64,000 bases of DNA from Limisphaerales bacterium (GTDB taxonomy: Bacteria > Verrucomicrobiota > Verrucomicrobiia > Limisphaerales > UBA9464), in contig OZ260084.1 in NCBI GenBank assembly GCA_965284395.1, forward strand, positions 3,158,566 to 3,222,565. The letters are read 5' to 3'. Below are positions 10,309-57,906 of this stretch, in pieces. The notes beneath the pieces are model-generated. The model was not told the origin of the DNA, searched no databases, and worked only from the letters and a program-made list of their open reading frames with translations. A program made the translations under genes and the position numbers. Position 1 is the stretch's first letter. Every line of letters starts with the position of its first letter.

Positions 10309-12228
10309 ATGGCTGAATCACTCATTGCGGCGCGCGAGATCGTCCTGAAGCACAACACCCGGGTCCTGCTGGACCGGGCATCGTTGGCCCTGTGCACGGG
10401 GGATCGGGTGGGGTTGGTGGGCCGCAACGGCTCGGGGAAGTCCACGTTCCTGAAGATCCTGTTCGGGTCGGTGCAACCGGACTCGGGCGAGGTGATCCGG
10501 ACGCGGGACCTGGTGGTGGGTTACCTGCCGCAGGAGTTCACGTTGGATCCGGAGCTGACGGTGGGCGAGAACGTGCGGTTGGGTGCGCAGCACGTGCTGA
10601 AGCTGATCGAGGAGTTCGAGAACCTGCCCGGTCACACGGCGCGGCATGACTACCTCGAGGACCGGATCAACCACTTCGACGGGTGGAACCTGGACCATCG
10701 GTTGAAGGCGGCGATCAGCGAGCTGGGCTGCCCGCCGGCGGACGCGCCGGTGACAAACCTCTCGGGTGGCGAGAAACGTCGGGTCGCCCTCGCCCGGGCA
10801 CTGGTGTCGCAACCGGACCTGCTCATCCTCGACGAGCCCACGAACCATCTCGACACGGAGAGCATCGGGTGGCTGACGGATTTCCTGCGGACGTATCCGG
10901 GAGCGATGCTGGTCGTGACGCACGATCGGCACTTCCTCGACGAGGTGGCGACGGGAATCGTGGAGCTTCGAAACGGGGTGTTCGAGCGGTACGAGGGTGG
11001 TTACACGGACTACCTGGTGGCGCGCGCGGAGAAGTTGGCGACGGAGGAACTGGTCGAGCACAAGCGCCAGATGTTCCTCCGGAAGGAGATTGATTGGGTG
11101 CGCCGTCGGCCGAAGGCGCAAACCAGCAAGTCCAAGGTTCGTTTGGACAAGTTCTACGAGGTGCAGGAACAGGGCCCGCCGCCGGAAGAGGGCGAGATGG
11201 ACCTGGTGGTGCCGCCCCCTCCGCAGTTGGGGAACCGGGTGGTCGAGCTGGAGGACGTGGGGTTGCAGTACGGTGGTCGCCGGCTGTTCTCGGGGATCTC
11301 GTTGCAGTTCGCCGGCGGGACGCGCGTGGGCGTGACGGGTCGGAATGGGCTCGGGAAAACGTCGCTCCTGCGGGTGATCCTGGGGCAGACGCCACCGACG
11401 GAGGGCGAAGTCCGGATCGGGGCGTTGACGAAGTTCAACTACGTCGACCAGAGCCGGCTGCAGTTGCGGGAGGATCGGACGGCGCTGGAGGAGTTGAGCG
11501 ATGGTTCGGAATGGGTGCAGTGGGGTGAAGAGAAGCTGTCGCTGCGGGGCTACCTGCGTCGGTTCCTGTTCACGGACGACCGGTTGACGACGCCGGTGAA
11601 GCTGATGAGCGGCGGCGAGCGTAGCCGCCTGCTGCTGGCGCGGATCCTGAAGAAGGGCGGCAATTTCCTGGTGCTGGACGAGCCGACGAACGACCTCGAC
11701 CTGCCGACGTTGCGGGTGTTGGAGGAAGCGCTGGTTTCATTCCCGGGCTGCGTGCTGGTCGTGAGCCACGACCGCTATTTCCTCAATCGCGTCTGCACGA
11801 ACATCGTGGCCTTCGAGGGCGAGGGCCGGGTGGTGACGAGCGCGGGCAACTACGACTATTACGTCGAGAAGAAGCGCCGGGCGGCGGCCGAGGAGGCGGC
11901 GTGGCTGGCGGCCCAGAAGGCGGCGGCGAAGAGCGGGGCGAAGCCGGCACCCAAGGCAGCGCCGCTGGCCGCGCCCGCACCAGTGGCAGCCGCACCGGCA
12001 GCCAAGGCGCGCAAGCTGAGTTACAAGGAACAGCGCGAATTGGATGGCATGGAGGCTGCCATCGAAGTTGCTGAGGGGAAGGTGACGGAGATGGAGGGAC
12101 GTCTGGCTTCCCCGGAATTCCACAAGACGATCGGAGCCAAGGCGCCGCAATTCATGGCCGAGTTGGAAGCGGCCCGTGCCGATGTCGCGCGGCTGTACGC
12201 GCGTTGGGAGGAACTGTCTGTGGGCTGA
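10309..12228 (+). CDS. ABC-F family ATPase (Uup/EttA-like, two ABC domains, no TMD)
   Basis: two Walker A sites 'GRNGSGKST' and 'GRNGLGKTS', two 'LSGGE' signatures, Ala/Lys-rich linker and C-terminal coiled-coil. Confidence 0.9.
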   Translation: MAESLIAAREIVLKHNTRVLLDRASLALCTGDRVGLVGRNGSGKSTFLKILFGSVQPDSGEVIRTRDLVVGYLPQEFTLDPELTVGENVRLGAQHVLKLIEEFENLPGHTARHDYLEDRINHFDGWNLDHRLKAAISELGCPPADAPVTNLSGGEKRRVALARALVSQPDLLILDEPTNHLDTESIGWLTDFLRTYPGAMLVVTHDRHFLDEVATGIVELRNGVFERYEGGYTDYLVARAEKLATEELVEHKRQMFLRKEIDWVRRRPKAQTSKSKVRLDKFYEVQEQGPPPEEGEMDLVVPPPPQLGNRVVELEDVGLQYGGRRLFSGISLQFAGGTRVGVTGRNGLGKTSLLRVILGQTPPTEGEVRIGALTKFNYVDQSRLQLREDRTALEELSDGSEWVQWGEEKLSLRGYLRRFLFTDDRLTTPVKLMSGGERSRLLLARILKKGGNFLVLDEPTNDLDLPTLRVLEEALVSFPGCVLVVSHDRYFLNRVCTNIVAFEGEGRVVTSAGNYDYYVEKKRRAAAEEAAWLAAQKAAAKSGAKPAPKAAPLAAPAPVAAAPAAKARKLSYKEQRELDGMEAAIEVAEGKVTEMEGRLASPEFHKTIGAKAPQFMAELEAARADVARLYARWEELSVG

Positions 12229-12295
12229 TGGCGCCGGCGTCGGGCGTCGGTGTGGGCGTTGCGACGGACGAACGTTGGGGTTCGGGCGAGACCAG

Positions 12296-13642
12296 TCATT
12301 CCGGGTGATCCAGGGGAGCCAGGGCGACGAAGGGGATGGCCTTGCCTGAGGGCGACGGACTGATTGTTTCGGTGAGCTCGATGCTGATGCGGGCGCGGGT
12401 TCCCACCGCCCGGTTGGCGGACGTGGTGATTTGTTCGAGCTCGGTTGCCGTCGGCGGACGCAACGGGACGAGTCGAAGCACCAGACGGCGGCGCTGGGTC
12501 TGGGCGAGTTGGAGTTGCCGGATCCACGCGAAGTTCGGGCGGATGGCGTTGAGGATTTCCCAAGGATGGAGCCAGAGATCCGGGCCGAGCGGGAATCGGT
12601 CGATGGTCCGGCCGCGGATCGAAAGCAGGGTGGAGCAGGGGGCACCGCACTGGCATGAGGCTGGCCCCTGGACTGCCATGTCCCCGACGCGATACCGGAT
12701 GAAAGGCATCGCGTAGGACAGCAGACTGGTGGCGACGACCTCACCGGATTCACCCGGGGCGGCGGGTTTGTTGTCTGGCCCCAGGATCTCGATCCGGTGG
12801 GAGTCTCCGCACACGTGATACGCGTCGAAGCCCGCAGGGCACTGCCACGCGATCAGGTTCAGCTCGTTGGAACCATAGAGATCGAAGATGGGGACGCGGA
12901 GCTGCTGTATCCGGCGGCGGAGGGATTCGGTGAGGAGTTCACCGCCGGTGGCGATGAACTGCAGCGGGAGTTCGACGCCGCGTTCCGCGCATTGATCCGC
13001 GAGGATGGCGATGGCGCTCGACATGCCGGCGATCCCCCGGGGCTTGAATTCAACGACGGCCTCCAGCAGTCGGGAATCACCGAGGGCATCGAAGACGCGC
13101 TGCTGGCAGAACCCGAGGCTGGCGGCGAGACGGTGGAGCAGCGGGTTGTCCCGCGCGTCTCGGGCGCGTCGGAAGTCGATGATCGCGAGACGGTCGGTGG
13201 TTCCGAGCCCGTAGTGACGCCAGGCGCGCCACCGGAGGGCATTGAGGAGTCGTTCTTCGAACCACGTTCGGCGGACCGCGAGGCGTTCACCGGTCGATCC
13301 GCTGGTCGAACGATCGAGCAGTTGGTCGGGATCGAGGTTGTCGGCCGTGCGATCCCGAAGGCTTGCCTGCTGGAGATCACGCCGGGTGAACACGGGCAGC
13401 CGCTCGAAGTCGGCGAGGGATCGGATGTCTTCCGGCGTGGCACCGACGCGATTGAACGCCTCGCGAATGACGGGCACGTGGGCATGGGCGTGGCGCAGGA
13501 GTCGCGAAAGCCGCCGCCATTGGTCGGTGGCCAGTTCCGATGGGTTGGCAGGCGGACGGTGAAGTCGCGGGTGGGCGAGCATCCGGACGACGTCCCAATC
13601 CTGGAAGAGGCTGCTCATTCGGAGGTGGGCCTTCTCCGGCAA
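12296..13642 (-). CDS. PaaK/coenzyme F390 synthetase-like adenylate-forming ligase
   Basis: 448 aa; AMP-binding motif 'STSGSTGE'; size and layout of phenylacetate-CoA ligase family; overlaps bshA-like gene by 28 bp (operon). Confidence 0.75.
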   Translation of the reverse strand: MPEKAHLRMSSLFQDWDVVRMLAHPRLHRPPANPSELATDQWRRLSRLLRHAHAHVPVIREAFNRVGATPEDIRSLADFERLPVFTRRDLQQASLRDRTADNLDPDQLLDRSTSGSTGERLAVRRTWFEERLLNALRWRAWRHYGLGTTDRLAIIDFRRARDARDNPLLHRLAASLGFCQQRVFDALGDSRLLEAVVEFKPRGIAGMSSAIAILADQCAERGVELPLQFIATGGELLTESLRRRIQQLRVPIFDLYGSNELNLIAWQCPAGFDAYHVCGDSHRIEILGPDNKPAAPGESGEVVATSLLSYAMPFIRYRVGDMAVQGPASCQCGAPCSTLLSIRGRTIDRFPLGPDLWLHPWEILNAIRPNFAWIRQLQLAQTQRRRLVLRLVPLRPPTATELEQITTSANRAVGTRARISIELTETISPSPSGKAIPFVALAPLDHPE

Positions 13643-14748
13643 TCTCCGAGGGTTCGCTCGTAGAGATCGAGATAGAGCGGGATGATCCGGTCGGGTGAGA
13701 AGAGATCCGCGGCGCGTTGGACGGCGGACTGCGCGAGGCGCTCGGCGAGTCGAGGGTGGGAGAGGATCTCCAGCGTCGCCGCGGCCATGCCGGCGACGTC
13801 GCCCGGTGGGAGCAGGCGCCCGGTGGTGCCATCCTCGACGAGTTCAGGCAGCCCGCCGACCCGGCTTGCGACGACGGGAACCCCGCAAGCCATGGCTTCC
13901 AACGCGGCCATTCCGAAGGCCTCGGTCTCGCTGGGAAGCAGGAGAACGTTGGCTGACCCGAGCCAGCGCTGGACGTCCGGTTGGTCGCCGACGAACTCCA
14001 CGTACGGTTCGAGCCCCAGGTCGCGGGCCAATTCTCGCGCTGCGGGGAGTTCCGGCCCGTCACCCACCATGACCAAACGGCAGGAATGCTGGCGTCGGAT
14101 GAGACCGAAGATCCGCAGGCAATCCGGGGCCCGCTTCACGGGGCGGAAGTTCGAGACGTGGATCAGGACGGACTGCGTGGGGTCTCCAACGATGCGACGG
14201 GTGCCGGGGCTGAATGTGGCGGGATCGATGAAGTTGGGGATGACCGGTACCGGAGGGAGGCGGAACAAGGATGAGGTTTCGTGGGCGAGCGAGTGGGAGA
14301 CGGCGGTGACGGCGTCGCTGCCGGTGATGGCAAGTCGGGCAACCGCGCTGAATTCCGGTTCGCGGCCGAGCGTGGTGACGTCGGTGCCATGGAGGGTGGT
14401 GATGACCGGCAGCGATTGCTGGGAGCGGACCATTGCGCGGGCGAGTTGCGCGCTGATGGCGTGCGGAACGGAATAGTGGGCGTGGAGCAGGTCGAGGTTT
14501 TCGCGGATGGCGACCTGGGCGATCACCGAGGCGAATTCGAGGATTGGCAGGGATTCGTCCGAAGCGGGAAACGACAATGCGGGGACGGAATGAAACTCCA
14601 CGTTCGGGGGGAAGGGCTGGATTCTGGCAGGATGGGTGCGTCCGATCAGGTGGACGACGTGTCCGCGTGCGCCGAGCTGACGGGCGAGCTCGCAGGCAAT
14701 GGTTGCGCTGCCGCCCGTTCGCGTGTGGCAGATGATTCCGAGCTTCAT
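13615..14748 (-). CDS. bshA: GT4 glycosyltransferase, BshA-like (N-acetylglucosaminyl-malate synthase family)
   Basis: 'MKLGIICHTRTGGSATIACELARQLGARGHVVHLIG' and 'ENLDLLHAHYSVPHAISAQLA...TTLHGTDVT' closely match BshA subfamily blocks; 'EAFGMAALEAMACGVPVVAS' GT4 motif. Confidence 0.8.
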   Translation of the reverse strand: MKLGIICHTRTGGSATIACELARQLGARGHVVHLIGRTHPARIQPFPPNVEFHSVPALSFPASDESLPILEFASVIAQVAIRENLDLLHAHYSVPHAISAQLARAMVRSQQSLPVITTLHGTDVTTLGREPEFSAVARLAITGSDAVTAVSHSLAHETSSLFRLPPVPVIPNFIDPATFSPGTRRIVGDPTQSVLIHVSNFRPVKRAPDCLRIFGLIRRQHSCRLVMVGDGPELPAARELARDLGLEPYVEFVGDQPDVQRWLGSANVLLLPSETEAFGMAALEAMACGVPVVASRVGGLPELVEDGTTGRLLPPGDVAGMAAATLEILSHPRLAERLAQSAVQRAADLFSPDRIIPLYLDLYERTLGDCRRRPTSE

Positions 14749-15491
14749 CAGGGGAGGATGTCCATCGGACCGGAGAGGAACTGGACCGGATCGTTGACGG
14801 CCGGGATTCCTCGGATGGCGAAGGCCTCGCCGTATCGTGTCTGGATCAGGGTACCGTAGTAGCGGTGGATGGCGTCGAGTCGGTCGAGGTGGTCTGGCGA
14901 GGAGACTCTGGTTTCCGGAGCGGATGAAGCGGGGTCGTGAAGTTGGGACTGATGGCAGCGGATTGCTTCATCCTTCTTCGAGTACCATTCGGAGATGTCG
15001 ACGATGAAGGTTGGTTGGACGGCATGCGGGAGTCCGAAGTGGGCGACGCGGCTAGGGCGATGCCGTGTCAGGGATGGGATGGGTTGCCAGTTGGCCAGCC
15101 CCGCGAGGTAGGCAGCGGCAGTGACGATCTGGGCCGTGGCGACGTGATCCGGGTGGGGTTGGTCCCAGTGGTGGGTCAGCACCAGTCGGGGCCGAAGCCG
15201 GCGGAAGGCGAGGGCGACCGCGGTGCGGGTTGCCAGGGTGTCGGTGAGTTGTCCGTCGCCGAGGTCGAGGCAGGAGCGATGGCGGAGTCCGAGTACCCGG
15301 GCAGCGGCCTCGGCTTCGGCTGCGCGGATTCCCGGGGTGCCCCGGGTGGCGGACTCGCCCCGGGTCAGGTCAAGGATCCCGGTGGAGTAGCCGAGGTAGG
15401 CGAGCTGGAGCAGGGTTCCTCCAGCGTGAAATTCCACGTCGTCGGGGTGGGCGCCGACTGCGAGGACATCCACCGTGGGGGACGGTTGCAT
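14748..15491 (-). CDS. bshB: PIG-L/LmbE-family deacetylase, BshB-like
   Basis: 'VDVLAVGAHPDDVEFHAGGTL' LmbE signature plus 'HPDH' motif; real start MQPSPTVDV (ATG 15491); upstream part of ORF 14748..16034 is Pro/Arg-rich artefact; ATGA overlap with bshA-like gene. Confidence 0.8.
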   Translation of the reverse strand: MQPSPTVDVLAVGAHPDDVEFHAGGTLLQLAYLGYSTGILDLTRGESATRGTPGIRAAEAEAAARVLGLRHRSCLDLGDGQLTDTLATRTAVALAFRRLRPRLVLTHHWDQPHPDHVATAQIVTAAAYLAGLANWQPIPSLTRHRPSRVAHFGLPHAVQPTFIVDISEWYSKKDEAIRCHQSQLHDPASSAPETRVSSPDHLDRLDAIHRYYGTLIQTRYGEAFAIRGIPAVNDPVQFLSGPMDILP

Positions 15492-15811
15492 GCGGTGAGT
15501 ATTGGACGGAGTCGGGGGGTGATGTCGACGGGCGGGGAAATGGTGGATCCCGTTGAAGGATGGGGCTGGCGCGATCCGGTTGCGGGCGCTCGACGGGATG
15601 GAGGCGGCGGGAGGACGGTGAGCACGGAGAGGTGGGGTGGTGGAGCAGGGAGCAGACTCACGCGGAGGCGCGGAGACGCGGAGGCGCGGAGGGGGGGCGG
15701 GCTGTACGGGAGCAGTCCGTTTCACCTTTCGAACGTAGGGTGTTTGATGCGGGCGCTGCAAAGTGCCCGGGCGGAATTGCGGTGCGGCGCTGCCCGTGGT
15801 TGGCTTGTGGG

Positions 15812-16564
15812 ATGATTGGGAATCGGCTTGGGCGCGGGGTGGTCGTAGTCGGCATGCTGCTGCTTGGGGTGGCATGCGCCGCTCCGGCACGGGCGCAGGT
15901 CGGGGTGGTTGCGGGGCCGATCGTGAATCCGGCGAACGAACATGAGTACTTCCTCCTTTCGCCGGGTGGGTGGCATGAATCGGAGACGCTTGCGATCGCG
16001 ATGGGTGGGCATCTGGTGACGATTGACGACGCATCGGAGCAGGCGTGGGTCTTCGACACGTTCGGTGCCTGGGGCGGGACCCATCGGAGTCTGTGGATCG
16101 GGCTGAGCGATGCGGCGCAGGAAGGTGAGTTCGTCTGGGCGGACGGGTCTTTGACGGGCTATTCGAACTGGCTGCCCGGCCAACCGGACAACAGCCCGGT
16201 CACGGATGGCGAGGACTACGTGCACATGCTCAATACGGGGAACGAGTATGGGCATCCCGGCGGATTCTGGAATGACCTCAAGAGTCCGAACTCGGTCTTC
16301 ACGACCTTTGATCCGGTTTGTGGTGTGGTGGAGCTGCCGTATCCGGTGCGGCCGACCCTGCAGTGGGTGGGCAATTCCCCCATGCTCTGCTGGAGGGCCA
16401 GACCCGGGACCCGGTGCCGCCTCGAGTTTCGGGCGACACTGGATGCCGGGGCCTGGTCGGAGTGGACGGTGGTGACGACGGACGCCAGTGGTCGGTCGTG
16501 TGTGGAAATGACGGGAGTCGTGGGACAGGGAGAAGGGTTCTTCCGGTTGGTTGTGGTGGAATGA
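15812..16564 (+). CDS. Secreted C-type lectin domain protein (QPD motif) with C-terminal conserved module
   Basis: signal peptide 'MIGNRLGRGVVVVGMLLLGVACAAPARA'; CTLD blocks 'WIGLSDAAQEGEFVWADGS...YSNWLPGQPDN...EDYVHM...GFWNDLKSPNS'; ends 'GEGFFRLVVVE'. Confidence 0.8.
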   Translation: MIGNRLGRGVVVVGMLLLGVACAAPARAQVGVVAGPIVNPANEHEYFLLSPGGWHESETLAIAMGGHLVTIDDASEQAWVFDTFGAWGGTHRSLWIGLSDAAQEGEFVWADGSLTGYSNWLPGQPDNSPVTDGEDYVHMLNTGNEYGHPGGFWNDLKSPNSVFTTFDPVCGVVELPYPVRPTLQWVGNSPMLCWRARPGTRCRLEFRATLDAGAWSEWTVVTTDASGRSCVEMTGVVGQGEGFFRLVVVE

Positions 16565-19694: not shown

Positions 19695-21389
19695 TCAGCC
19701 GGGCGGGATGGGGGTGATGGAGTCGATGCCGCGTCGGGCGAGGAGCGCGATGGTGAGTCTCAGGGCGAGGTAATTGACCGGCAGGAGCGCGGCGGCGGCG
19801 ATCAGCCCTCCGATGGGAATGATGCAGACCATGAGGCCGAGGAGGTCGAGCAGGAGGACGGCGACGACGAAGGCGAGGCCGAGGTAGGAGACCAGACCTT
19901 TCATCCAGCCGCGGTTGACGGCCTGGAATCGGTAGATGGTGAGCGCGGGTCGGATGGCGATCCAGATCAGGGCAACCTGGGCCCCGATGAGGGCACCGAC
20001 GCCGTAGCCGTGGCCGAGGAAGCCCGAAGCGATGGCGGCGGTGGCGGTGCTGACGGGAAGGGCGGCGAGGGCGCGGACGACGGTGGCCTTCCACTGGACG
20101 GTGGCGACCTCGGAGAAACGGACTGGCAGGACGTGGATGGGGCAGATCTGGATTCCGGTGTCGGCCATGACCGCGGGACGGAGTGTGAAGCTGGAGGAGA
20201 GTGGCAACAGGTACAGGGAACCGGCCGCATAGCCGATGAATGAGAGCGGCAGCCAATCGGGTGCCCACAGGCCGAGCGTGACGGAAACCGGGACCGTGCA
20301 GGCAAGGACGATGGAGCCGGTGCCCCAGCGGGTGGACCAGTCCGGCCAGGAGAGGCGGAGATACTCTGCGACAGTGCGTTCGCGCGGAGTCCACCACCGC
20401 CAGACGAGGGCCTCGATGCGGCCCGGAGGGTTCTCCAGATTGGAGGTGAGGAAGGAGCGGTTGAGGATGTCGTCGACGATGGCGGTTTCGCCGCGGGACG
20501 GGGGTGACTGCTGCGCGATGGCGACGGACTCGGCGAGTTCTTCGTCGGCGTCCTCCGGGGTTTCGAGGAACAGGTCGAGGAGGATGGCGTCGCGATACTG
20601 GTAGTTGGCGCAAGTCCAGCGGAGGTTCAGAGGCAGGGTGGAAAGCAGGGGAACGAGGGGGATGAGGGCGACAGCCAGGTGCCAGGGACCGTTCTCGACC
20701 AGGGCCGACCAGGGAAGGATGACCCAGCCGGTGGGCAGCAAGGCGGCGAGTAGGTCGCCGTGGGCGGTCATGAGTTGTTCGACGCGGGCTTCAACCCATT
20801 TTGAACCCTTGATGGAGAGCAGCAGGATGACGGTGGCTGGCAGGGAAATGGCCATGGGTACGGCAAGCCATCGGGAGCGGGCGGCGGCGAGGGCATAGGT
20901 GACGGCAACGAGAGGGAAGGCCACGGCGATGAGGAGGCCGGCGAGAATGGGCACGCCGAAGCCGGGGCCGGTGCGGAGGTGGGAGGCGAGGATGGCGAAT
21001 CCGGCCCCGGCAGCGACGCTGATGAAGGCGATGTGGCGGGCGGCCCGGGCGGCCTGGCGGCGGAGGACGTCGATCGGAGCGACGGGCAGCAGGGCGAAGA
21101 GGGCGAGGTGGGGATGGTTTCGGAGGTTGGCATCGATGACGAACCCGACGTAGGCGATGCCGATGAACAGAAGGAGGCTCAGTGAAAAGTGGCGTGGGGC
21201 CGGGTCCATCGCGCCGATGAAGGGCGGGGCAACGATGGCGATGCCGAGGACGAAGGGATTCCCGGTCCAGCGGAAGAGGACGCGGATCCAGGAGTAGAGG
21301 TTGCGGCCGACGCCACGGGTTGTGCGTGCGGCGGCTAGAAGTCGGCGAGTGCGGACGAGGAACTCGGGCGATGGTTGGATGCCCCACAT
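19695..21389 (-). CDS. Polytopic membrane protein (564 aa), putative ABC-2-like permease partner of upstream ABC ATPase
   Basis: start MWGIQPSPEF (ATG 21389) 5 bp after the oxidoreductase stop; >=10 hydrophobic helices; low-complexity N-terminal extension of ORF 19695..21743 rejected. Confidence 0.55.
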   Translation of the reverse strand: MWGIQPSPEFLVRTRRLLAAARTTRGVGRNLYSWIRVLFRWTGNPFVLGIAIVAPPFIGAMDPAPRHFSLSLLLFIGIAYVGFVIDANLRNHPHLALFALLPVAPIDVLRRQAARAARHIAFISVAAGAGFAILASHLRTGPGFGVPILAGLLIAVAFPLVAVTYALAAARSRWLAVPMAISLPATVILLLSIKGSKWVEARVEQLMTAHGDLLAALLPTGWVILPWSALVENGPWHLAVALIPLVPLLSTLPLNLRWTCANYQYRDAILLDLFLETPEDADEELAESVAIAQQSPPSRGETAIVDDILNRSFLTSNLENPPGRIEALVWRWWTPRERTVAEYLRLSWPDWSTRWGTGSIVLACTVPVSVTLGLWAPDWLPLSFIGYAAGSLYLLPLSSSFTLRPAVMADTGIQICPIHVLPVRFSEVATVQWKATVVRALAALPVSTATAAIASGFLGHGYGVGALIGAQVALIWIAIRPALTIYRFQAVNRGWMKGLVSYLGLAFVVAVLLLDLLGLMVCIIPIGGLIAAAALLPVNYLALRLTIALLARRGIDSITPIPPG

Positions 21390-21393
21390 GGTG

Positions 21394-22453
21394 TCAAAGG
21401 GCGCCGACGGCTCGGAGGAGAGTCTCCTGCGTGGTCCGTTCGGTGGCGGGCTCGATGGGAAGTGGGCGGTTGTCGAGGACGCAGGCGGCGAGTTCGGCAA
21501 GTTCCCCGACGTAGCGGGAGTAGGGAGGGAGAGAAACGGAGGTGCGTCCGGCAGGGAGGTCGGCGTGAGAGCGCGCGAGGTCGAGGGTGAGGTTGGGGGG
21601 CTCGATCGGCTGAAGGAGGGCGTTGCCGCGGGTTCCGCAGAACTCGAAGGATCGGTTGTCGCCGGCGTTGTGACGAAGGGTGGAGCTGGTGATGACGACC
21701 GTGGTCTTCGGGAGCTCCAGGACGGCGACGTTGGCGTCGGCAAGGCGATCGGAGCCGGTGCCGCCGAGGGTTCGGAGGAACGGTGTCACCCGGGTGGGGC
21801 GGCCGAAGAGACGGACTGCGGCGTCGATGACGTGGGATCCGAGCTCGAAGAGGACGCCGCCCGGGAAGCGCGCCCATTCGGCGCGACGGGCTGAGGCGAG
21901 TTGGTTGTCGATGGCGATGCGGACCAGGAATACGTCGCCAAGTGCACCCTCGCGGATGAGGTCGGCAACGCGATTGATGCCGGGATGATGGCGCCACATG
22001 TATCCGACCTGGAGCAGGCGTTTCTTCGCGGCGGCAAGGCGGAGGAGTTCGTCGATCTCCGGGAGGGTGAGGGCGGGTGGTTTCTCGAGGTGTACGTGAC
22101 GCCCGGCTTCGAGCGCGAGCCGCGCGAGCGGTGCGTGTTGGGGGACGTCGGACTCGACGAGGATGACTTCGGCCTGATCGAGGAGTTCGCCTTGACTGAG
22201 GATGGGCACGCCGCGGGCGGAGTATTCGGCGGCCAGGGTTGGGGTTTCTGGCCACGCACCGACCAGGTTCCAGTCGGGAGACGTCTGGAGGAGTCGGCAC
22301 TTCTCGGCGGCGTGGGAGTAAGCGAGGCCAAGGAAGCCGACCGGAATGCGGCGGGTGGGTTGGTTGGGTTGGGCAGCGATGGAAGGGAGGGTCGCGCCTG
22401 CGGCGGCGATGGCCGAGGCGGTGACGAAGGAGCGTCGGGTCATGGGATCACCG
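21394..22453 (-). CDS. Gfo/Idh/MocA-family NAD(P)-dependent oxidoreductase with Tat signal
   Basis: 'MTRRSFVTASAIAAAGATLP' twin-arginine signal; Rossmann 'IPVGFLGLAYSHA'; 'VHLEKP' MocA motif; alternative start 22471. Confidence 0.8.
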
Positions 22454-30622: not shown

Positions 30623-31103
30623 GGAGGCATCGGGGGGAGGATGAGCGGAGCGGCTCGACGGAGTCTCGCCCTACCCCTTTTCTGAGGCCTGGGGGGAGAG
30701 TTGACAGAGGGGTGGTTCGGTGGGCGTGATGGGCCCGTTCGAAACATTGCAGCCTAAGTCCACCTGCCTTCCTGCTGGTGGACGCGGGGGAACCAGAATC
30801 CCCGGTGAAGACCGGGGAGGGGGCGCACGGGTCCGGGCAACCGGATCCCAGGTCACTTCCAAGACCGAGCCCGTCAGCTAACTCCGTCGGCGACTGGAAG
30901 GGCGATCCTCTGGGTCCGCAGGTTGCGGCTCCCACGTTCACCCCATTGAAACAAGACGGCACGTCGGCATGGAGCCGGCGTGCCTGCGCGTCGCTGCGTA
31001 CCTACGAGGTGACGTTTCGAATGCGCGTGTGAATGAAGCGGCGGTGGGCATTGCCGGGAGGAAATCCAAACCCGGCGGTGATCCATCACTGCGGGAGACA
31101 TCC

Positions 31104-32897
31104 ATGAATCCCATGTTGGTGGTTGCGGCCGGAATGGTCGCTTTGCTGGTGTTGGTCCCGGTCGTGGTGTGGTTGGCGGGGTTTGTCCGCATCCGGGAGG
31201 ATCAGGTCGGGATCGTGATCAAGCGGTTTGCCCGACACTCATTGCCAGCGGGTCGATTGATCGCGCTGGAAGGAGAGGCGGGCTATCAGGCCGACACGCT
31301 GGCTCCCGGCTGTCATTTCGGCTACTGGCCATGGCAGTACGAGGTGCAGAGGGTGCCGATGACCGTCGTGGCGCCGGGCGAGATCGCGTTGGTGGTGGCG
31401 GCGGATGGTGCGCCGATTCCACCGGAGCGGATCCTGGGCAAGGTGGTGGCGAGCGATGACTTCCAGGACGCACGGCGGTTCCTGACCGGGGGCGGGGAGC
31501 GCGGGCGGCAGTTGGGAATCCTTACGGCGGGCACGTACCGCATCAATACGGTCCTCTTCCAGGTGATCTCATCGCATACCGCCGAGGCTCACGGGCTGGC
31601 CCGGGAGTCGCTGCTGGTGCACCGGGTGGAGCCGGACCGGGTGGGAATCGTGACGACACTCGACGGGCGGCCGATCGACGCGGGTGAGATCGCGGGGCCG
31701 TCGATCCCGAACCACGACAACTTCCAGAATGCGCAGGCCTTCCTGGAGGGAGGCGGGCGGCGTGGGCTGCAGGAGCAGGTGCTCTTGAGCGGCAGTTGGA
31801 ACCTGAATCCGTGGTTCGCACAGGTCGAACAGGTGCCCATGGTCGAGATCCCGATCGGGTCGGTGGGGGTGGTGATGTCATTCGTGGGCGCGGCGCACGA
31901 GGACGTGAGCGGGACCGACTTCAAGCACGGCGACCTGGTGAATCCGGGACACAAGGGTGTGTGGGTGACGCCGCTCTATCCAGGCAAACATCCGATCAAC
32001 ACGCGGGTGATGAAGGTCGAGCGCGTGCCGACGACGAACATCGTGCTGAACTGGGCGAACCGCACCGAGGCGCACAACTTCGACGCAAAGCTCTCGTCGA
32101 TCACGGTGCGTTCGCGGGACGGCTTTGCCTTCAACATCGACGTTTCCCAGATCATCCACGTTGGGGCGTTGGAAGCGCCCAAGGTGATCTCGCGGGTGGG
32201 TTCGATGCAGAACCTGGTGGACCACGTCCTGCAACCGATCGTCGGGAACTGCTTCCGGAACTCGGCGCAGGATTTCACGGTGCTCGATTTCCTGTCGGCG
32301 CGGAGCCACCGACAGACGGATGCTGCGGGGCACATCCGGATCGCGTTGGGGGCTTATGACGTGCAGGCGATCGACACGTTGATCGGGGACATCAACCCGC
32401 CGGCGGAGCTGATGCACACGCAGACCGAGCGGAAGATCGCCGAGGAACAGCGCAAGACTTACGAGGTACAGGAGGCGGCGCAGCAGCAGCGCCAGCAACT
32501 GGTCCGCGGCACGGCATTGGCGGACATCCAGTCGAAGGTGGTCGCGGCCGAGCAGGGCGTGGACATCGCCCGCCTGCAGTCGGACGCGCACATCCGCCAG
32601 GCAACGGGCGAGGCGGAGGCGGTGCGATTGCGTGCGGTTGGTGAGGCGGAAGCCATTCGAGCGACGGGTGAGGCCCGGGCGGGGGCGTACCGGTCAGGCG
32701 TGGAAGCGCTGGGCCGGGAAGCGTACCTGCGCTTGCAGTTGATGCAGGTGGTCGGCGAACGCGGAGTGCGGATCGTGCCGGACGTCTCGGTGACCGGGGC
32801 GGCCGGAGGGGCAGGCCTGGTGGAAGCGTTGCTGGGGCGGACGCTAGGCCTACCGGCAGCCGGTCACGCGGATAGTACCGGAGCGGCGGCAGGCTGA
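31104..32897 (+). CDS. SPFH/band-7 flotillin-like protein (YqiK-like)
   Basis: N-terminal TM, SPFH domain, C-terminal 'EAEA' repeat region 'ATGEAEAVRLRAVGEAEAIRATGEARA' typical of flotillins. Confidence 0.8.
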   Translation: MNPMLVVAAGMVALLVLVPVVVWLAGFVRIREDQVGIVIKRFARHSLPAGRLIALEGEAGYQADTLAPGCHFGYWPWQYEVQRVPMTVVAPGEIALVVAADGAPIPPERILGKVVASDDFQDARRFLTGGGERGRQLGILTAGTYRINTVLFQVISSHTAEAHGLARESLLVHRVEPDRVGIVTTLDGRPIDAGEIAGPSIPNHDNFQNAQAFLEGGGRRGLQEQVLLSGSWNLNPWFAQVEQVPMVEIPIGSVGVVMSFVGAAHEDVSGTDFKHGDLVNPGHKGVWVTPLYPGKHPINTRVMKVERVPTTNIVLNWANRTEAHNFDAKLSSITVRSRDGFAFNIDVSQIIHVGALEAPKVISRVGSMQNLVDHVLQPIVGNCFRNSAQDFTVLDFLSARSHRQTDAAGHIRIALGAYDVQAIDTLIGDINPPAELMHTQTERKIAEEQRKTYEVQEAAQQQRQQLVRGTALADIQSKVVAAEQGVDIARLQSDAHIRQATGEAEAVRLRAVGEAEAIRATGEARAGAYRSGVEALGREAYLRLQLMQVVGERGVRIVPDVSVTGAAGGAGLVEALLGRTLGLPAAGHADSTGAAAG

Positions 32898-36767: not shown

Positions 36768-38705
36768 ATGAGTGACCTACAAGTGCTGCAGCAGACGTTG
36801 GACCGGACCGTGGCGCGTGCCCGGATGGTGCGGGCGTGGCGAGGATTGTGGCGCGGGATGCTGGTGGGGGCGGTGGTCTATCTGGCCTGCCTCGCGGCCT
36901 ACAAGCTGGCGCCGTTGCCGTGGGCGGTGGTGCAGGCGGGTCTGGTCGGTGGCCTGTTCGCGGTCGTGGCTGGTTTGGCTTGGGGGCTCATGCACCGCGT
37001 CACGACGGACGAGGCGGCGCGGTTCCTGGATCTGCGTGCGGGCCTCAAGGAACGGCTGAGCACGGCGCTGGAAATGGCGAAGCAGGGCAAGGAGGACCGT
37101 TGGGCCCAGCTTTTGATCGCCGATGCCAGCGTCTCGGCGCGGACGGTGGATGCCCGCCGGGTGCTGCCGTTTGAACTTCCATCGTTTTCCCGCTGGGTGG
37201 TTCTGGCACTGGCGCTCGGTGCCGGGCTGGGTTTTGTCCCGGAGTACCGGACGAAGGCGCAGCAGCAGCAGGCGCAGGATGCGGGCGTGATCAAGGATAC
37301 CGGCAAGAATCTGGTCCAGGTGACCAAGCGTGAGGTCGCCGAGCGCAAGCCGGCGATGGAGCAGACGCGGAAGGCGTTGGATGAGGTCCAGGAACTGGGC
37401 GAGCGGTTGCAGAGCGCGAAACTCAATCGGGATGATGCGCTTCGGGATCTGGCCAAGGTCACGGATACGATGAAGCAGCAAGCCCTGGACCTGGCGAAGA
37501 ATCCGGCCCTGCGGAAGCTGGAGAAGGCTGCGAGGAATTCGGGTACGACACCGAACACGACTCCGGCGTCCCTCCAGAAGCAGATGGATTCCCTTCAGAA
37601 GGCGCTGGGTGACCGCGCGGACCAAGGCGAGGCCATGAAGGACATGCAAAAGCAGTTGGACAAGATGAAGGAGGAGGCGAAGGGGTTGGCGGACAAGACC
37701 GGCGCCGCAGCGGAGCAGGCAAAGAAGGATCTCGCCAAGTCGTTGGCGGAACTCTCGCGTCAGGCGGAGTCGATGGACATGCCGATGGAGAGCCTGGCCG
37801 ACGCCGCTGAGGCGCTGAAGAACGCGGACATCGATCAGTTCGTGAAGGATCTGGGCATCGCCGAGAAGGATCTGGAGAAGCTGGCGGACATGGCCAAGCA
37901 GTTGGCGAAGATGCAGGCGCAGGCCGACAAGCTGGGCAAGGACCTGGCGGAACAGTTGAAGAACGGCCAGGCCGAGGCGGCGGGAGATACGCTGCGCAAG
38001 ATGATCGAGCAGCTCCAGATGGGGAATCTTTCCAAGGAACAGTTGCAGAAGCTGGCGGAGGAGGCGTCCAAGGCCGCCAAGCCCGGCGAGCAGTACGGCA
38101 AGGTGGGCGAGTTGCTGAAGCAGGCGGCCGGCCAATGCCAGAACGGAGACAAGAAGGGTGGATCGGAAAGCCTGGCCGCAGCCCAGAAGGAACTTCAGGA
38201 GTTGATGGACCAGATGGGCGACGCACAGGCGATGATGGCCGCGCTCCAGAACCTCCAGAAGGCCCAGATGTGCATCGGCAACGGCCAGTGCTGGGGGCAA
38301 TGCAAGAATCCCGGTGCGCCGAGGGCAGGCAAGGGCGGCAAGGGTGGCAAGGGCGTCGGCACGTGGTCGGAGAACGACGCGTGGTCTATGCCCGAGGAAA
38401 TTTCCGACCTTTGGGACAACTCGGGACTCAATCGCCCGGACATGGCGGGCAAGGGGCATACCGACCGGGACATCAACCAGCCTGACGGATTGGTGCCGAC
38501 CAAGGTCAAGGGTCAGCTCCAGCCAGGTGGACCCATGCCGAGCATCACCTTGAAGGGCGTCAGTGCGAAGGGTGAGAGCCGCGTGCAGTACGCGGAGGCG
38601 GTGGCGGCGGCGCAGTCCGATGCCCAATCCGCGCTCAACCAGGAGCAGGTGCCGAAGGCGTACAAGAACGCGGTCCGGGACTACTTTGATGACCTGAAGC
38701 GCTGA
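36768..38705 (+). CDS. Membrane-anchored giant coiled-coil protein (645 aa), function unknown
   Basis: two N-terminal TM helices, ~400 aa Lys/Glu/Ala/Gln-rich heptad region, Cys/Gly-rich 'CIGNGQCWGQCKNPGAPRAGKGGKGGKG' segment, conserved-looking C-terminus. Confidence 0.65.
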   Translation: MSDLQVLQQTLDRTVARARMVRAWRGLWRGMLVGAVVYLACLAAYKLAPLPWAVVQAGLVGGLFAVVAGLAWGLMHRVTTDEAARFLDLRAGLKERLSTALEMAKQGKEDRWAQLLIADASVSARTVDARRVLPFELPSFSRWVVLALALGAGLGFVPEYRTKAQQQQAQDAGVIKDTGKNLVQVTKREVAERKPAMEQTRKALDEVQELGERLQSAKLNRDDALRDLAKVTDTMKQQALDLAKNPALRKLEKAARNSGTTPNTTPASLQKQMDSLQKALGDRADQGEAMKDMQKQLDKMKEEAKGLADKTGAAAEQAKKDLAKSLAELSRQAESMDMPMESLADAAEALKNADIDQFVKDLGIAEKDLEKLADMAKQLAKMQAQADKLGKDLAEQLKNGQAEAAGDTLRKMIEQLQMGNLSKEQLQKLAEEASKAAKPGEQYGKVGELLKQAAGQCQNGDKKGGSESLAAAQKELQELMDQMGDAQAMMAALQNLQKAQMCIGNGQCWGQCKNPGAPRAGKGGKGGKGVGTWSENDAWSMPEEISDLWDNSGLNRPDMAGKGHTDRDINQPDGLVPTKVKGQLQPGGPMPSITLKGVSAKGESRVQYAEAVAAAQSDAQSALNQEQVPKAYKNAVRDYFDDLKR

Positions 38706-48925: not shown

Positions 48926-49252
48926 TCAAAGGGTGCCTTGGGAGGCGTTGGTTGTCGGAAGACTGGGTAGGTTGGTGATGGTGAAACTGGCGACTGGGAG
49001 ACAGTTCTGCGCGACGAGTGTGGAGAGTCCAGTAGCCCGGTTCACACCCTCCGGGACGACCGTTGCAGCTGCAGGCGACCAGGCGATCGTGACGGCAAAA
49101 AGCCACACAGAGGTGACGACGAGGCAGACTCGCATCCAGGGCTCACCGAGGCGCGAGATCGTGGCAGCATCCGCGGATGACTGGAAAATCCTTCGCCGCA
49201 GGGCCTGGGACGCCGGCCTCGGCTTCCATGGTGGGATGGGTCCGGTTTTCAT
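48926..49252 (-). CDS. Putative anti-sigma factor (single TM)
   Basis: ATGA overlap with ECF sigma stop; TM 'MRVCLVVTSVWLFAVTIAW'. Confidence 0.4.
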   Translation of the reverse strand: MKTGPIPPWKPRPASQALRRRIFQSSADAATISRLGEPWMRVCLVVTSVWLFAVTIAWSPAAATVVPEGVNRATGLSTLVAQNCLPVASFTITNLPSLPTTNASQGTL

Positions 49253-49779
49253 GAAGTGGGGCAGGGGAAGAAACTGGGATCTTCCGAGAGCTTCAGGTGG
49301 CGCCGCAGATGTTCCACCCCATAGCGATACCTCCCGGCTGCGGTGTTGGGGCTAACCCCGGTGACTTCGGCGATCTCCTCGAAGGTCATCGCATGCCAGA
49401 ACTTCAGGACGATGACCTCTCGCTGCTCGGCAGGAAGTCTAGCCAGAGCCTCCATCGCTGACCGTTCGGCTGGGTGTGGATCCTCCGCAGGCTCGAACCA
49501 GTCGCGGCTTTCAAGTTCGCGCGCCAATCGTCGCCAGAGACTGCGCTTGCGGTTCAGCGCGTGATTGCGGAACGCACGGACGAGATAATGGGACGGCTTG
49601 CGGGGCGGTTCAGGCCGCTGCAGGAGCTCCGCAAACACGTCCTGGACCGAATCCTCGGCCTCCGAATGCCCGAGTCCCAACGCCCGGCCATACAGGATCA
49701 AGCAGGCCGCGTGGGCCTCAAAGAGGTCCTCAGCCCAGTGGCTCCTGTTGGTGTTCCCGCCGGCCATTTCGAATACCAT
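49249..49779 (-). CDS. ECF-family RNA polymerase sigma factor
   Basis: sigma-70 region 2 'LILYGRALGLGHSEAEDSVQDVFAEL' and region 4 'REVIVLKFWHAMTFEEIAEVTGVSPNTA'; start MVFEMAGG (ATG 49779); upstream part of ORF is antisense-tRNA artefact. Confidence 0.8.
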   Translation of the reverse strand: MVFEMAGGNTNRSHWAEDLFEAHAACLILYGRALGLGHSEAEDSVQDVFAELLQRPEPPRKPSHYLVRAFRNHALNRKRSLWRRLARELESRDWFEPAEDPHPAERSAMEALARLPAEQREVIVLKFWHAMTFEEIAEVTGVSPNTAAGRYRYGVEHLRRHLKLSEDPSFFPCPTS

Positions 49780-50064
49780 GACACCGGGGCCGGCGTTTTT
49801 GTATGCCCGGGACGAAAAAAGTTCGTCGAACTCCTCGTGCGTCCGGCGCGGAGGCCTTCGGTGCGGGTATTGGCTTTCCGCGGTTCCTCGCCTCTTGGAT
49901 TCGGGGATGACTCCTGACGTTGGCCTGCGGCAACTACGATCGGAGTACCAAAACCCGTTCGGCCCGACCCGGAGGCGTGGATGCCGGTGGGCCCTAGATC
50001 CTGAGTTATGCCCGGAAGGTGGGCTTTGCAGAGGGTTTCCGGACCAATTTCCGGAACCCGTGTT

Positions 50065-50149
50065 TGGTGCGCACGGCAGGACTTGAACCTGCACGCCGTA
50101 AGGCACTACCACCTCAAAGTAGCGCGTCTGCCAATTCCGCCACGTGCGC
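50065..50149 (-). tRNA. tRNA-Leu (anticodon GAG), long variable arm, encoded CCA
   Basis: rc: gcgcacg tg gcggaattggcagacgc gctact ttGAGgt ggtag tgccttacggcgtgc aggttcaagtcct gccgtgcgc a cca. Confidence 0.8.
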
Positions 50150-50189
50150 ATTAAACATCCCCTTACGGGGCCTCCGTTAGGAGGGCAGA

Positions 50190-50267
50190 TGGTCGGGGCG
50201 GTGAGATTTGAACTCACGACCTCTTGTACCCGAAACAAGCGCGCTAGCCAGGCTACGCTACGCCCCG
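50190..50267 (-). tRNA. tRNA-Pro (anticodon CGG), encoded CCA
   Basis: rc: cggggcg ta gcgtagcctggctagcgcgc ttgtt ttCGGgt acaag aggtc gtgagttcaaatctcac cgccccg a cca. Confidence 0.8.
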
Positions 50268-50829
50268 AACCAAAATGCGGGCGGAACATGCGGAACGTAG
50301 CCGACGACTGCAACGGTTTTCTTTCTTCGGTACCAAAAATCTGCCGAGAACCCAGTGCATGGCAGGCAAAGGGGCCGTGCCCGCTTGCCGTCGGCTGCAC
50401 CACCTCAGAACACAGCGGACCTAACGGGCCCGCGAGCAGTGCCGCTCAAACTGTGAGTTGGCCCGGCCGCGGAAGGCTACTGATGACTGCGGCCAAAAAC
50501 CCCGGATCGGATGCCGATAGCGTGGAGTTCAGGCCAGCGCCGAGCGGTGGCGTGTCGAGAAGTCGGTCCATCTCGGCTCTTGGCCATGAGCCCATGAAAA
50601 AGGCACGGCAGACTCTTGAACCTGGAAAAGGCAGTTGGAACCACGGATGGCAGGTATGTGGTTTGTCAACGAGAGCCTGAGAAAACCGAAGGGAAAATCT
50701 TTCGTGGGCCAAGCATGCTGACTGCACCAGGGCGCGTGGTGCCGGCGCCAGCACCCAGCCTGGGAAAGGAGAGAACGGTGGGCCTACGCCTTTGCCGTCC
50801 TCCCCTCTCCGTTTCTAGGCGGCCAAAAC

Positions 50830-53063: not shown

Positions 53064-53195
53064 CTGCGCTCCCGTTTCGCCTCTAACAGGGCAAAACGAT
53101 GAGCCCGGCCGATAACCAAGTTGCTCCAGGCAACTGGGAGTGATGGCTGAGTGCACGCCAGCGAGTGCTGCGTGTCCGAATTTGAATTTTTGCCT

Positions 53196-54044
53196 GTGAA
53201 AACATTTAGGCCTCTAACGCCCTCGACGCGTTACATGACGTACGCCGACTTTTCGGACATCACGAAGAGTCGTCCGGAGAAGTCGCTGGTTTATACCCGC
53301 AAGAAATCTGGCGGCCGTAATAGTTACGGCCGGGTGACCGCCCGAGCGATCGGTGGCGGACACAAACAGAAGGTTCGGGTGGTAGACTTCCGACGCAGCA
53401 AGATCGGCATCGAAGCCAAGGTGGTCGCTGTGGAGTATGATCCGATCCGGAGCGCCCGGCTTGCTCTCGTCGAATACACCGACGGTGATCGGCGATACAT
53501 CATTTGCCCTGAAGGGCTCAAGGTGGGCACGACCATCATGAATGGTCCCTCGGCCCCTCCTACGGTGGGGAATTGCCTTCCCCTCTCCGCTATCCCCATG
53601 GGTGTCACGGTTCATAATGTTGAGCTGGTGCCGGGCAAGGGCGGTCAAATGGTTCGCTCGGCAGGCTCTGGAGCGACGCTGATGTCGAGGGACGCTGGGT
53701 ATGCTCAGCTTCGCCTTCCCTCTGGCGAAATCCGCAAGGTTCATGAGAACTGCGTCGCCACCATCGGTCAGGTAGGCAACACCCAGCATGAGAATGTTGT
53801 CCTCGGCAAGGCCGGCCGCAGCATCCATCGGGGACGTCGTCCGATGTCCCGAGGCATGGTCCGCAATCCTGTGGACCATCCCAACGGTGGCGGTCAGGGT
53901 AAGTCCAAGGGTGGTGGTGGTCGCCAGCATCTAGTCTCGCCGTGGGGTGTCCTTGCCAAGGGCTATCGCACTCGCGAAAAGCGCAAGAATTCCAACCGGT
54001 TCATCCTGGTTCGCCGGGACGGCCGACCGATGAAGCTCAAGTAA
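53196..54044 (+). CDS. rplB: 50S ribosomal protein L2
   Basis: '[27 protein letters not shown]', '[22 protein letters not shown]', '[13 protein letters not shown]'; GTG start. Confidence 0.95.
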
Positions 54045-54048
54045 GCAT

Positions 54049-54330
54049 ATGGGACGTTCTCTCAAGAAAGGGCCGTTTGTGGACCAACACCTGATGGACA
54101 AGGTCCAAAAGGCTCGGGCTACAAAGTCCAAGGCACCGATCAAGACGTGGTCGCGCCGATCGACCATCACCCCCGACTTCGTCGGGCTCACCGTCAACGT
54201 GCACAACGGGCGTGTGTTCAATCCTGTGTTCATCACTGAAAACATGGTTGGACATAAGTTGGGCGAGTTCAGCCTCACCCGCACGTTCAAGAAGCATGGT
54301 GCCCATACCGCGAAGGCGGAGGCCAAGTAG
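54049..54330 (+). CDS. rpsS: 30S ribosomal protein S19
   Basis: '[19 protein letters not shown]...[23 protein letters not shown]'. Confidence 0.95.
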
Positions 54331-54341
54331 GAAGGAATCCC

Positions 54342-54674: not shown

Positions 54675-54678
54675 TCCT

Positions 54679-55344: not shown

Positions 55345-55388
55345 TTGATCCGGCTAACAACCGTACATTCTAGGAAAAAGGATTTCAT

Positions 55389-55808: not shown

Positions 55809-55819
55809 TTTTTTATCCC

Positions 55820-56029: not shown

Positions 56030-56040
56030 ACCACAGGTAT

Positions 56041-56328: not shown

Positions 56329-56361
56329 TCCGGAACCGAATAACTCCCAAGGGGACTCATC

Positions 56362-56727: not shown

Positions 56728-56749
56728 GGTTCGAATAATTGCCAAGGTT

Positions 56750-57058: not shown

Positions 57059-57061
57059 GCC

Positions 57062-57601: not shown

Positions 57602-57624
57602 CTTCACCTACAACTTTCCAGACT

Positions 57625-57894: not shown

Positions 57895-57906
57895 GGAATA
57901 CACCTC

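Follow-up and report, generated by a model that had tools for sequence, protein, structure and literature searches.

Here, we describe three overlapping genes on the minus strand of a 64,000-nucleotide stretch of a Limisphaerales chromosome (contig OZ260084.1; the whole stretch is called the window below), in which bshB1 and bshA, the first two genes of bacillithiol synthesis (bacillithiol being a thiol that protects the cell), are joined by a gene for an adenylate-forming ligase of the PaaK fold. We see about an even chance that the three genes constitute a self-contained verrucomicrobial operon that makes a metabolite of the bacillithiol type. That the ligase adenylates cysteine, uses it to acylate glucosaminyl-malate (GlcN-malate) and so replaces the canonical enzyme BshC is, in our judgement, a similarly balanced proposition. 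The genes and their junctions are the following (aa, amino acids; nt, nucleotides; GlcNAc, N-acetylglucosamine; UDP, uridine diphosphate; GT4, glycosyltransferase family 4).

14748..15491, minus strand: bshB1, GlcNAc-malate N-deacetylase of the LmbE/PIG-L family, 247 aa (curated profile match)
13615..14748, minus strand: bshA, UDP-GlcNAc:L-malate N-acetylglucosaminyltransferase (GT4), 377 aa (curated profile match)
12296..13618, minus strand: PaaK-fold adenylate-forming ligase, 440 aa, proposed from its sequence as a GlcN-malate N-acylating (cysteine) ligase
14746..14750, minus strand: one-base overlap TGATG of bshB and bshA (direct sequence reading)
13615..13618, minus strand: 4-nt start/stop overlap ATGA of bshA and the ligase gene (direct sequence reading)

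An earlier note on this DNA, made from the letters alone, had placed three minus-strand open reading frames (ORFs) at 12296-15491, and all three are there, as are the peptides that it quoted (GGSATIACELARQLGARGHVVHLIG, LLHAHYSVPHAISAQLA, VGAHPDDVEF and STSGSTGE). The tight coupling that it described holds as well, with the two junctions the other way round. At 14748, where it had read an ATGA overlap, the bshB stop TGA (14750-14748) and the bshA start ATG (14748-14746) have a single base in common; the ATGA sits between bshA (stop TGA, 13617-13615) and the ligase gene (ATG, 13618-13616). The 28-bp overlap reported for 13615-13642 arises only with the longest ORF, which begins at an alternative TTG start at 13642 and gives 448 aa, whereas the ATG at 13618 is backed by a database gene call (P0001, 440 aa, 100% identical) and by homologues of 428-460 aa. 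At the head of the operon, the bshB start ATG at 15491 is also the start of a database protein (P0122, 247 aa); an extension of this ORF to 16034 (428 aa) was rejected as a Pro/Ala/Ser-rich artefact of G+C-rich sequence. The stop/start overlaps would couple the translation of bshB, bshA and the ligase gene.

We assigned BshA and BshB1 at the equivalog level by the curated NCBIfam cut-offs, and all three proteins were scored against NCBIfam and Pfam. BshA reaches 409.9 bits against TIGR03999 (cut-off 273.7), its residues 1-367 aligning to profile positions 1-374 of 375. It matches the solved BshA of B. subtilis (5d00) over the full length at 285 bits and that of B. anthracis (3mbo) at 280 bits, and the motifs GGS, HAHY..PHA, TLHGTD and SNFR.VKR are common to the window protein and the solved BshA. 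For BshB1, the score against TIGR04001 is 225.7 bits (cut-off 182.5), while the rival profiles remain far behind, with only 42.7 bits for BshB2 and 22-30 bits for MshB and Mca. It also matches Pfam PIG-L (E 3e-25), and its metal site is marked by AHPDD (aa 13-17) and HPDH (aa 113-116), which align with TT1542 (1uan); among solved proteins, it comes closest to Thermus TT1542, B. cereus BC1534 and the BshB1 entry 6p2t. With both proteins above the equivalog cut-offs, the earlier naming of the first two genes as BshA (GT4) and BshB (LmbE) stands. The window BshA is 46-49% identical to canonical BshA of Acidobacteriota and equally similar to other BshAs that are linked to the ligase. Against a canonical bshB-bshA pair of the Blastocatellia (locus L146), the identities of 49% for BshA and 55% for BshB are on par with those of the ligase-linked copies. 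Nothing in the two sequences suggests a changed product; since both proteins pass their cut-offs and have diverged no further from canonical copies of Acidobacteriota than from the ligase-linked ones, GlcN-malate should be the intermediate made here.

The third protein is clearly a PaaK-fold adenylate-forming enzyme and a member of no curated ANL/PaaK-fold family: in the NCBIfam and Pfam scan, it falls below every curated cut-off. Its best curated match is the DVU_1553-family AMP-dependent coenzyme A (CoA) ligase (NF045666), at 108.7 bits with a cut-off of 300. PaaK proper follows (TIGR02155 and NF041878, 76.5 and 93 bits, cut-offs 646 and 700), then BagE/FevW (40 bits, cut-off 800) and Pfam AMP-binding (27.7 bits, cut-off 29.9). 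Coenzyme F390 synthetase (TIGR03335, 29.4 bits, cut-off 458.7) and its relatives (TIGR02304, 20.5 bits, cut-off 251.9) are missed by far. That the ligase is PaaK-like is borne out by profile and by fold. A profile search of the PDB with the ligase found PaaK1/2 and BT_0428 at E 1e-29 to 1e-31. An AlphaFold2 (AF2) model of good quality (predicted local distance difference test, pLDDT, 86.6; predicted template-modelling score, pTM, 0.84) gave PaaK1, BT_0428 and PaaK2 as the top Foldseek matches, with probability 1.00, template-modelling scores (TM) of 0.62-0.68 and 22-25% identity. No match to BshC (TIGR03998 or PF10079) was found for the ligase at E<=0.01. For many of its homologues, a precomputed table gives PF27533.

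Is the association of this ligase with bshA and bshB a peculiarity of one genome? Among 5.8 billion clustered proteins, the ligase belongs to a clade of about 63 clusters at 90% identity, whose members are at least 45% identical to it, and beyond which the scores fall from 338 to 297 bits. When 1.84 billion 50%-identity representatives were searched exhaustively with HMMER, 28,382 family members came up (E<=1e-3), of which only 4 score in the clade range (704-566 bits) before a gap to 445 bits. The clade is monophyletic in a neighbour-joining tree. We collected loci from species-representative genomes, JGI metagenomes and exact-protein look-ups, and located BshA and BshB in them by tblastn. 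A GT4 gene lies directly upstream of the ligase gene in each of the 25 distinct clade loci that have upstream DNA (ligase homologues of at least 43% identity), and 19 of these 25 show the full order bshB-bshA-ligase; two more (L090, L099) are cut by a contig edge with bshA immediately 5' of the ligase gene. Conversely, neither bshA nor bshB stands beside the ligase gene in any of about 110 outgroup loci (at most 41% identity). The conserved three-gene synteny for which the earlier note had asked is thus present in 19 distinct loci and in none at 41% identity or less. The named hosts are metagenome-assembled genomes (MAGs) of a Verrucomicrobia, a Limisphaerales, a Binatia and an Isosphaeraceae (Planctomycetota) bacterium, and the GT4 proteins of the Binatia and Isosphaeraceae MAGs exceed the BshA cut-off as well (363 and 395 bits). 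One contig labelled 'Cyanophyceae cyanobacterium' (L004, 1524-4628) is 90.7% identical in nucleotides to a Limisphaerales locus (L003, 7985-11089) over 3.1 kb and is probably mis-binned.

The junctions are conserved along with the order. The 4-nt ATGA overlap of GT4 and ligase genes is usual across the clade loci and is found in the gene calls of L001, L084, L149 and L150, and the 1-nt overlap of bshB and bshA recurs in L082 and L147. All-against-all clustering of the neighbouring ORFs in the 25 clade loci showed nothing kept beyond bshB, GT4 and ligase. The flanks are unrelated between lineages, with housekeeping or mobile genes in relatives (restriction-modification genes, serA/serC, TetR, a GMC oxidoreductase and others) and ABC-F/MFS (major facilitator superfamily) genes in the window. 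Since nothing else is conserved and the flanks differ by lineage, the trio behaves as a portable functional module and not as part of a polysaccharide cluster. The possibility that the ligase belongs to a CapK-type polysaccharide cluster, raised in the earlier note as grounds for giving up the proposal, does not agree with the trio standing alone in unrelated contexts, here and in relatives. Canonical organisms lack the ligase at this place: a Blastocatellia locus has the bshB-bshA pair (L146), and locus L148 has bshA alone. The ligase is thus a later addition to an older bshB-bshA pair.

These data bear directly on the simplest alternative, an ordinary acyl- or aryl-CoA ligase or a CapK-type capsule gene that adjoins bshA and bshB by chance. 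Databases do label homologues 'phenylacetate-CoA ligase', and among curated families a CoA ligase family matches best; the scores, though, lie far under all curated cut-offs. No paa or polysaccharide genes surround the ligase gene, its ATGA overlap with GT4 is kept across phyla despite differing flanks, and the adjacency runs from 25/25 within the clade to 0/~110 outside it. We regard a chance neighbour as the least probable of the explanations considered here.

If the ligase is part of the pathway, which member does it replace? We searched for BshC by tblastn, using as query a B. subtilis sequence validated at 672 bits against TIGR03998. Neither the window nor 359 kb of clade loci yielded a BshC-like ORF, with the limit that a single-sequence query could miss a very divergent BshC. 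Over 2.0 Mb of window and loci, only chance matches appeared (best E 0.02-0.03, 29 residues). In a RefSeq survey of 2025 that covered 43 phyla, BshA+BshB+BshC are recorded for no Verrucomicrobiota and for only two species of Planctomycetota (PMC12719100 supplement), and Hiras et al. singled out Verrucomicrobia and Planctomycetes as lacking a predicted low-molecular-weight thiol (PMC6282198). BshA and BshB are plainly present here, and the evidence, though indirect, points one way: in such genomes, the missing pathway member would be BshC. Our literature search found no publication that ties bacillithiol genes to a PaaK/F390-type ligase.

The ligase could also be an accessory to a BshC encoded elsewhere, supplying its activated cysteine donor or modifying or recycling bacillithiol. 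There would be room for such a helper, as the BshC reaction has never been reconstituted and the activated cysteine donor is unknown (PMC5790435). It is difficult to reconcile with the absence of RefSeq Verrucomicrobiota that hold all three proteins, with BshC-containing organisms that have no ligase beside bshA (L146, L148) and with the rarity of the clade, about 63 clusters compared with at least 7,984 for BshA. We therefore consider an accessory role to be highly improbable.

Together, these observations lead us to propose the following pathway. To judge from equivalog-level homology, BshA would move GlcNAc from UDP-GlcNAc onto L-malate to give GlcNAc-malate, and BshB1 would then strip the acetyl group and free the 2-amino group of GlcN-malate. 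The anatomy of the ligase, the gene order and family precedent suggest that the ligase would then convert a carboxylic acid, most probably L-cysteine, into its adenylate with adenosine triphosphate (ATP), and that the GlcN-malate amine would attack the acyl-adenylate, yielding an amide and adenosine monophosphate (AMP) with no CoA involved. In this way the ligase would stand in for the unrelated BshC and produce bacillithiol or a close derivative. To our knowledge, N-cysteinylation is the only known fate of GlcN-malate. Since no second fate is known for GlcN-malate, and BshC as well as any other predicted thiol are missing from these lineages, cysteine is the most economical choice of acid. 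Transfer of an acyl-adenylate to oxygen or nitrogen nucleophiles without CoA is documented for the PaaK-fold enzymes NatL2, AjiA1 and ClxA (PMC7204872, PMC12519233).

The ligase carries the expected set of adenylation motifs, and one segment of it may bear on the choice of substrate.

13289..13306, minus strand: motif A3 (phosphate loop) TSGSTG, aa 105-110, invariant in 58 clade sequences
13148..13159, minus strand: D-x-R-D loop, aa 154-157, D157 invariant, aligned to the PaaK1 aryl-pocket segment (2y27)
12863-12877, minus strand: motif A5 YGSNE, aa 248-252, intact, invariant in the clade
12680-12694, minus strand: motif A7 YRVGD, aa 309-313, intact, invariant in the clade
12599-12613, minus strand: motif A8 GRTID, aa 336-340, intact, invariant in the clade
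12341..12352, minus strand: motif A10 PSGK, aa 423-426, catalytic lysine K426 invariant

The D-x-R-D loop aligns to the aryl-pocket segment of PaaK1 (Y136...F141...A147). It follows A3 at a distance of about 45-50 residues, the position at which the adenylation domains of nonribosomal peptide synthetases have their aspartate for binding the alpha-amino group. The loop is modelled with low confidence (pLDDT 60-73), and a role in the substrate pocket is a lead only.

Several points weigh against cysteine as the acid and against a pathway tied to BshA and BshB. Nothing in the ligase sequence identifies cysteine as the substrate, and we know of no characterised PaaK-family enzyme that activates an alpha-amino acid, the known substrates being aryl or alkyl acids. 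D157 is often present in near outgroups, too. We considered C260/H268/C322/C324 as a zinc/thiolate site that would mark cysteine binding and rejected it; as these residues are common to the outgroups and to BT_0428, they are no clade-specific evidence. A nested sub-clade (L084/88, L087, L091, L149) has an upstream GT4 that is not BshA (73-76 bits) and no deacetylase nearby, which makes GT4, and not BshB, the strictly conserved partner of the ligase. Finally, the hints of a thiol theme among neighbouring genes in relatives are each confined to one lineage and could be due to chance; they comprise a glutathione S-transferase (GST; L084/85/87), a DinB-family protein (L082), a glyoxalase-like protein (L098) and serA/serC (L082, L147).

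The sub-clade may represent a separate, second pathway, likewise based on a glycoside and served by a ligase of the same type. Its loci (L084 8748-12800, L087 2721-6126, L091 485-2946, L149 8754-11287) show the same 4-nt overlap of GT4 and ligase genes, and in three of them genes for a GST-family protein and a HAD phosphatase come next.

These points leave space for an enzyme that N-acylates GlcN-malate with another acid (amino, hydroxy or aryl), giving a new N-acyl-glucosaminyl-malate that is perhaps not a thiol and is further decorated in some lineages. The PaaK-fold enzymes characterised so far all act on acids that are aromatic or are not amino acids, and the D-x-R-D segment that corresponds to the pocket is charged, unlike the hydrophobic pocket of PaaK1, yet gives no specific pointer to cysteine. 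Moreover, the variable GNAT, Methyltransf_11 and ATP-grasp neighbours suggest a tailored product. GlcN-malate, however, has no fate on record other than cysteinylation, a thiol would fill an obvious need in host phyla with no other predicted low-molecular-weight thiol, and GNAT and methyltransferase neighbours fit equally well a tailoring of Cys-GlcN thiols as carried out by MshD and NmbA. We consider a different acid unlikely, though the most probable of the alternatives. Both outcomes had been named in the earlier note, which left the choice between bacillithiol, with the ligase substituted, and a different N-acyl-GlcN-malate, and this is where the evidence stands.

Alternatively, the ligase might activate the malyl carboxylate of GlcN(Ac)-malate itself and couple it to an external amine or to its own 2-amino group, forming a six-membered lactam. 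By our own reasoning, the chemistry is feasible. It would be akin to a reaction on sugar acids that CapK-type PaaK homologues may carry out in glycan clusters, and the nearest outgroups (at most 41% identity), which lie in glycosyltransferase-rich clusters and often come as paralogue pairs, would fit sugar-linked substrates. The idea is speculative, however: it has no demonstrated precedent, assigns no role to a free external acid and leaves unexplained why the trio occurs in lineages that have no BshC. We judge malyl activation to be very unlikely. For the remainder, we continue with cysteinylation of GlcN-malate as the working proposal.

In some relatives, genes beside the trio may modify the product in the manner of MshD and NmbA. 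A GNAT acetyltransferase stands beside the trio in L002, L003, L006 and L150, homologous Methyltransf_11 enzymes are present in L002, L098 and L102/104, and L104 has two ATP-grasp ligases. All such accessory neighbours (GNAT, methyltransferase, ATP-grasp, glyoxalase, GST, DinB) are lineage-restricted, and none of the GNAT, Methyltransf_11, ATP-grasp or glyoxalase-like neighbours of the trio matches a curated family. The methyltransferase was considered as NmbA and rejected, as no curated family was matched (best 40 bits, BioC). The accessory genes lie at 10047-11653 in L002, 11516-12424 in L003, 7002-7928 in L006, 7302-7931 in L150, 7218-8078 and 11984-12394 in L098, and 69-815 and 4416-6548 in L104. 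In the metagenome contigs L082 (11451-15385) and L147 (8647-11762), the trio is followed by convergent serA (phosphoglycerate dehydrogenase) and a class-V aminotransferase gene (serC-like). The serA and serC enzymes serve the synthesis of serine and hence of the cysteine precursor; this adjacency may count as a single event because L082 and L147 may be one lineage. Among about 45 ORFs elsewhere in the window, Pfam and NCBIfam scans found no thiol-related genes.

Redox balance and detoxification depend centrally on low-molecular-weight thiols. Our results offer a concrete candidate thiol pathway for Verrucomicrobiota and most Planctomycetota, for which no thiol is documented or predicted (PMC6282198; PMC12719100). 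If the proposal is true, surveys that require BshA, BshB and BshC undercount bacillithiol producers, and the reach of the PaaK fold extends from CoA and benzoxazole ligases to the acylation of amino sugars. A stand-alone ATP-adenylating ligase would also provide an easily assayed enzyme for the unresolved last step of bacillithiol synthesis and a possible biocatalyst for bacillithiol and its analogues. Tentatively, and with a little less than an even chance in our estimate, the PaaK-fold ligase would be a third, independently evolved way of joining cysteine to a glucosamine scaffold, after MshC and BshC. It would give Verrucomicrobiota, Isosphaeraceae and Binatia, for which no low-molecular-weight thiol is predicted, a bacillithiol-type redox buffer, tailored in some lineages into undescribed thiols by GNAT, methyltransferase or ATP-grasp neighbours.

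On the chromosome, the trio is bounded by genes of the opposite strand.

15560-16564, plus strand: C-type-lectin-like ORF, divergent from bshB
15492..15559: divergent spacer of 68 bp between bshB and the lectin-like ORF, presumed from its position to be the promoter region
12229..12295: convergent spacer of 67 bp between the ligase stop and the ABC-F gene, the operon end
10309-12228, plus strand: ABC-F gene, convergent with the ligase gene

A promoter scan of 12100-15800 gave no sigma-70-like sites, and no intrinsic terminator was predicted in 12229-12295. The single terminator-like site within 12100-15800 falls within the ligase gene and is on the wrong strand, and the count is below that of shuffled sequences. 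The wider flanks hold ABC-F, MFS, an RND pump, the lectin-like ORF and tyrosyl-tRNA synthetase (TyrRS). The local order RND pump, MFS, ABC-F, trio is the same in a Verrucomicrobia MAG, and the window TyrRS is 75-78% identical to proteins of Verrucomicrobia/Verrucomicrobiota MAGs.

The rest of the window showed several further features. Its plus strand is strongly richer in G than in C, whatever the orientation of the genes (GC skew 0.168 over 1-64000, up to 0.29 per 2 kb); beyond about 46 kb, the skew falls to about 0.05 and the G+C content from 65% to 58%. A c-di-AMP (cyclic diadenosine monophosphate) riboswitch of the ydaO/yuaA type (30741-30907, plus strand; 52 bits, gathering score 38) lies directly 5' of a gene for a 642-aa SPFH/Band-7 protein (30969-32897), an unusual downstream gene for this class. 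An IS110-family transposase gene (50899-52254, minus strand) adjoins tRNA genes at 50068-50149 and 50193-50267, and a sigma-70-family protein of 384 aa whose N terminus is much extended is encoded beside it (49249-50403). Positions 53151-63152 are taken up by the ribosomal-protein S10/spc operon with secY. Two long ORFs have coding-like codon bias and no family match: 19695-21743 on the minus strand (682 aa; Pfam and NCBIfam) and 36768-38705 on the plus strand (645 aa; Pfam).

How does the proposed enzyme compare with relatives of the same fold? PaaK1/2 of B. cenocepacia and BT_0428 of B. thetaiotaomicron have the N-terminal helical microdomain and motifs A3-A10 in common with the ligase, and BT_0428 also its C-x-C-G motif. 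Where the PaaK phenylacetate-CoA ligases have an aryl-pocket segment, the ligase has the charged D-x-R-D loop instead; PaaK proper has CoA as acceptor, whereas for the ligase, with no paa genes nearby, an amine acceptor is proposed. The working model is given by NatL2, AjiA1, ClxA and BagE-FevW of benzoxazole and bagremycin synthesis, PaaK-fold enzymes that pass an ATP-adenylated acid straight to a hydroxyl or amine. They are about 20% identical to the ligase, and their substrates are aminohydroxybenzoates of secondary metabolism and not sugar amines. The nearest outgroups are PaaK/CapK-like ligases from glycosyltransferase-rich clusters of Gemmatimonadota, Acidobacteriota and archaea (25-41% identity), often close to generic GT4 genes, never beside BshA or BshB, and often tandem paralogues or fusions; their proximity to GT4 suggests an ancestral role in the decoration of glycoconjugates. 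The paralogue pairs of the outgroup loci are often found side by side, and the wider family includes proteins of about 900 aa, among them P0382 (875 aa), a tandem fusion in which each unit has TSG and C-x-C-G motifs. Matches in two stretches are also seen in P0426, P0429, P0454, P0481, P0492 and P0508.

Compared with known thiol pathways, the ligase would take the same slot as BshC (YllA), after BshA and BshB and consuming GlcN-malate, and both were found by association with bshA and bshB. The two are unrelated in sequence: the fold of BshC is of the Rossmann type, similar to that of class I aminoacyl-tRNA synthetases, with an added coiled coil, and the ligase has a two-domain ANL/PaaK fold with the textbook ATP-adenylation motif set. 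The mycothiol pathway follows the same logic, from a GT4 glycosyltransferase through an LmbE deacetylase to a ligase, with inositol as the acceptor aglycone in place of malate. Its Cys:GlcN-inositol ligase MshC is a paralogue of cysteinyl-tRNA synthetase with a class I fold, which recognises cysteine by a zinc-thiolate; no MshC-type fold or cysteine-recognition site is evident in the ligase. The analogy with MshC drawn in the earlier note hence applies to the proposed chemistry, an ATP-dependent cysteinyl-adenylate attacked by the 2-amino group of glucosamine, and fails for the fold. As far as can be read from sequence, the pathway appears to work like those of mycothiol and bacillithiol, with a ligase that is in neither the BshC nor the MshC family.

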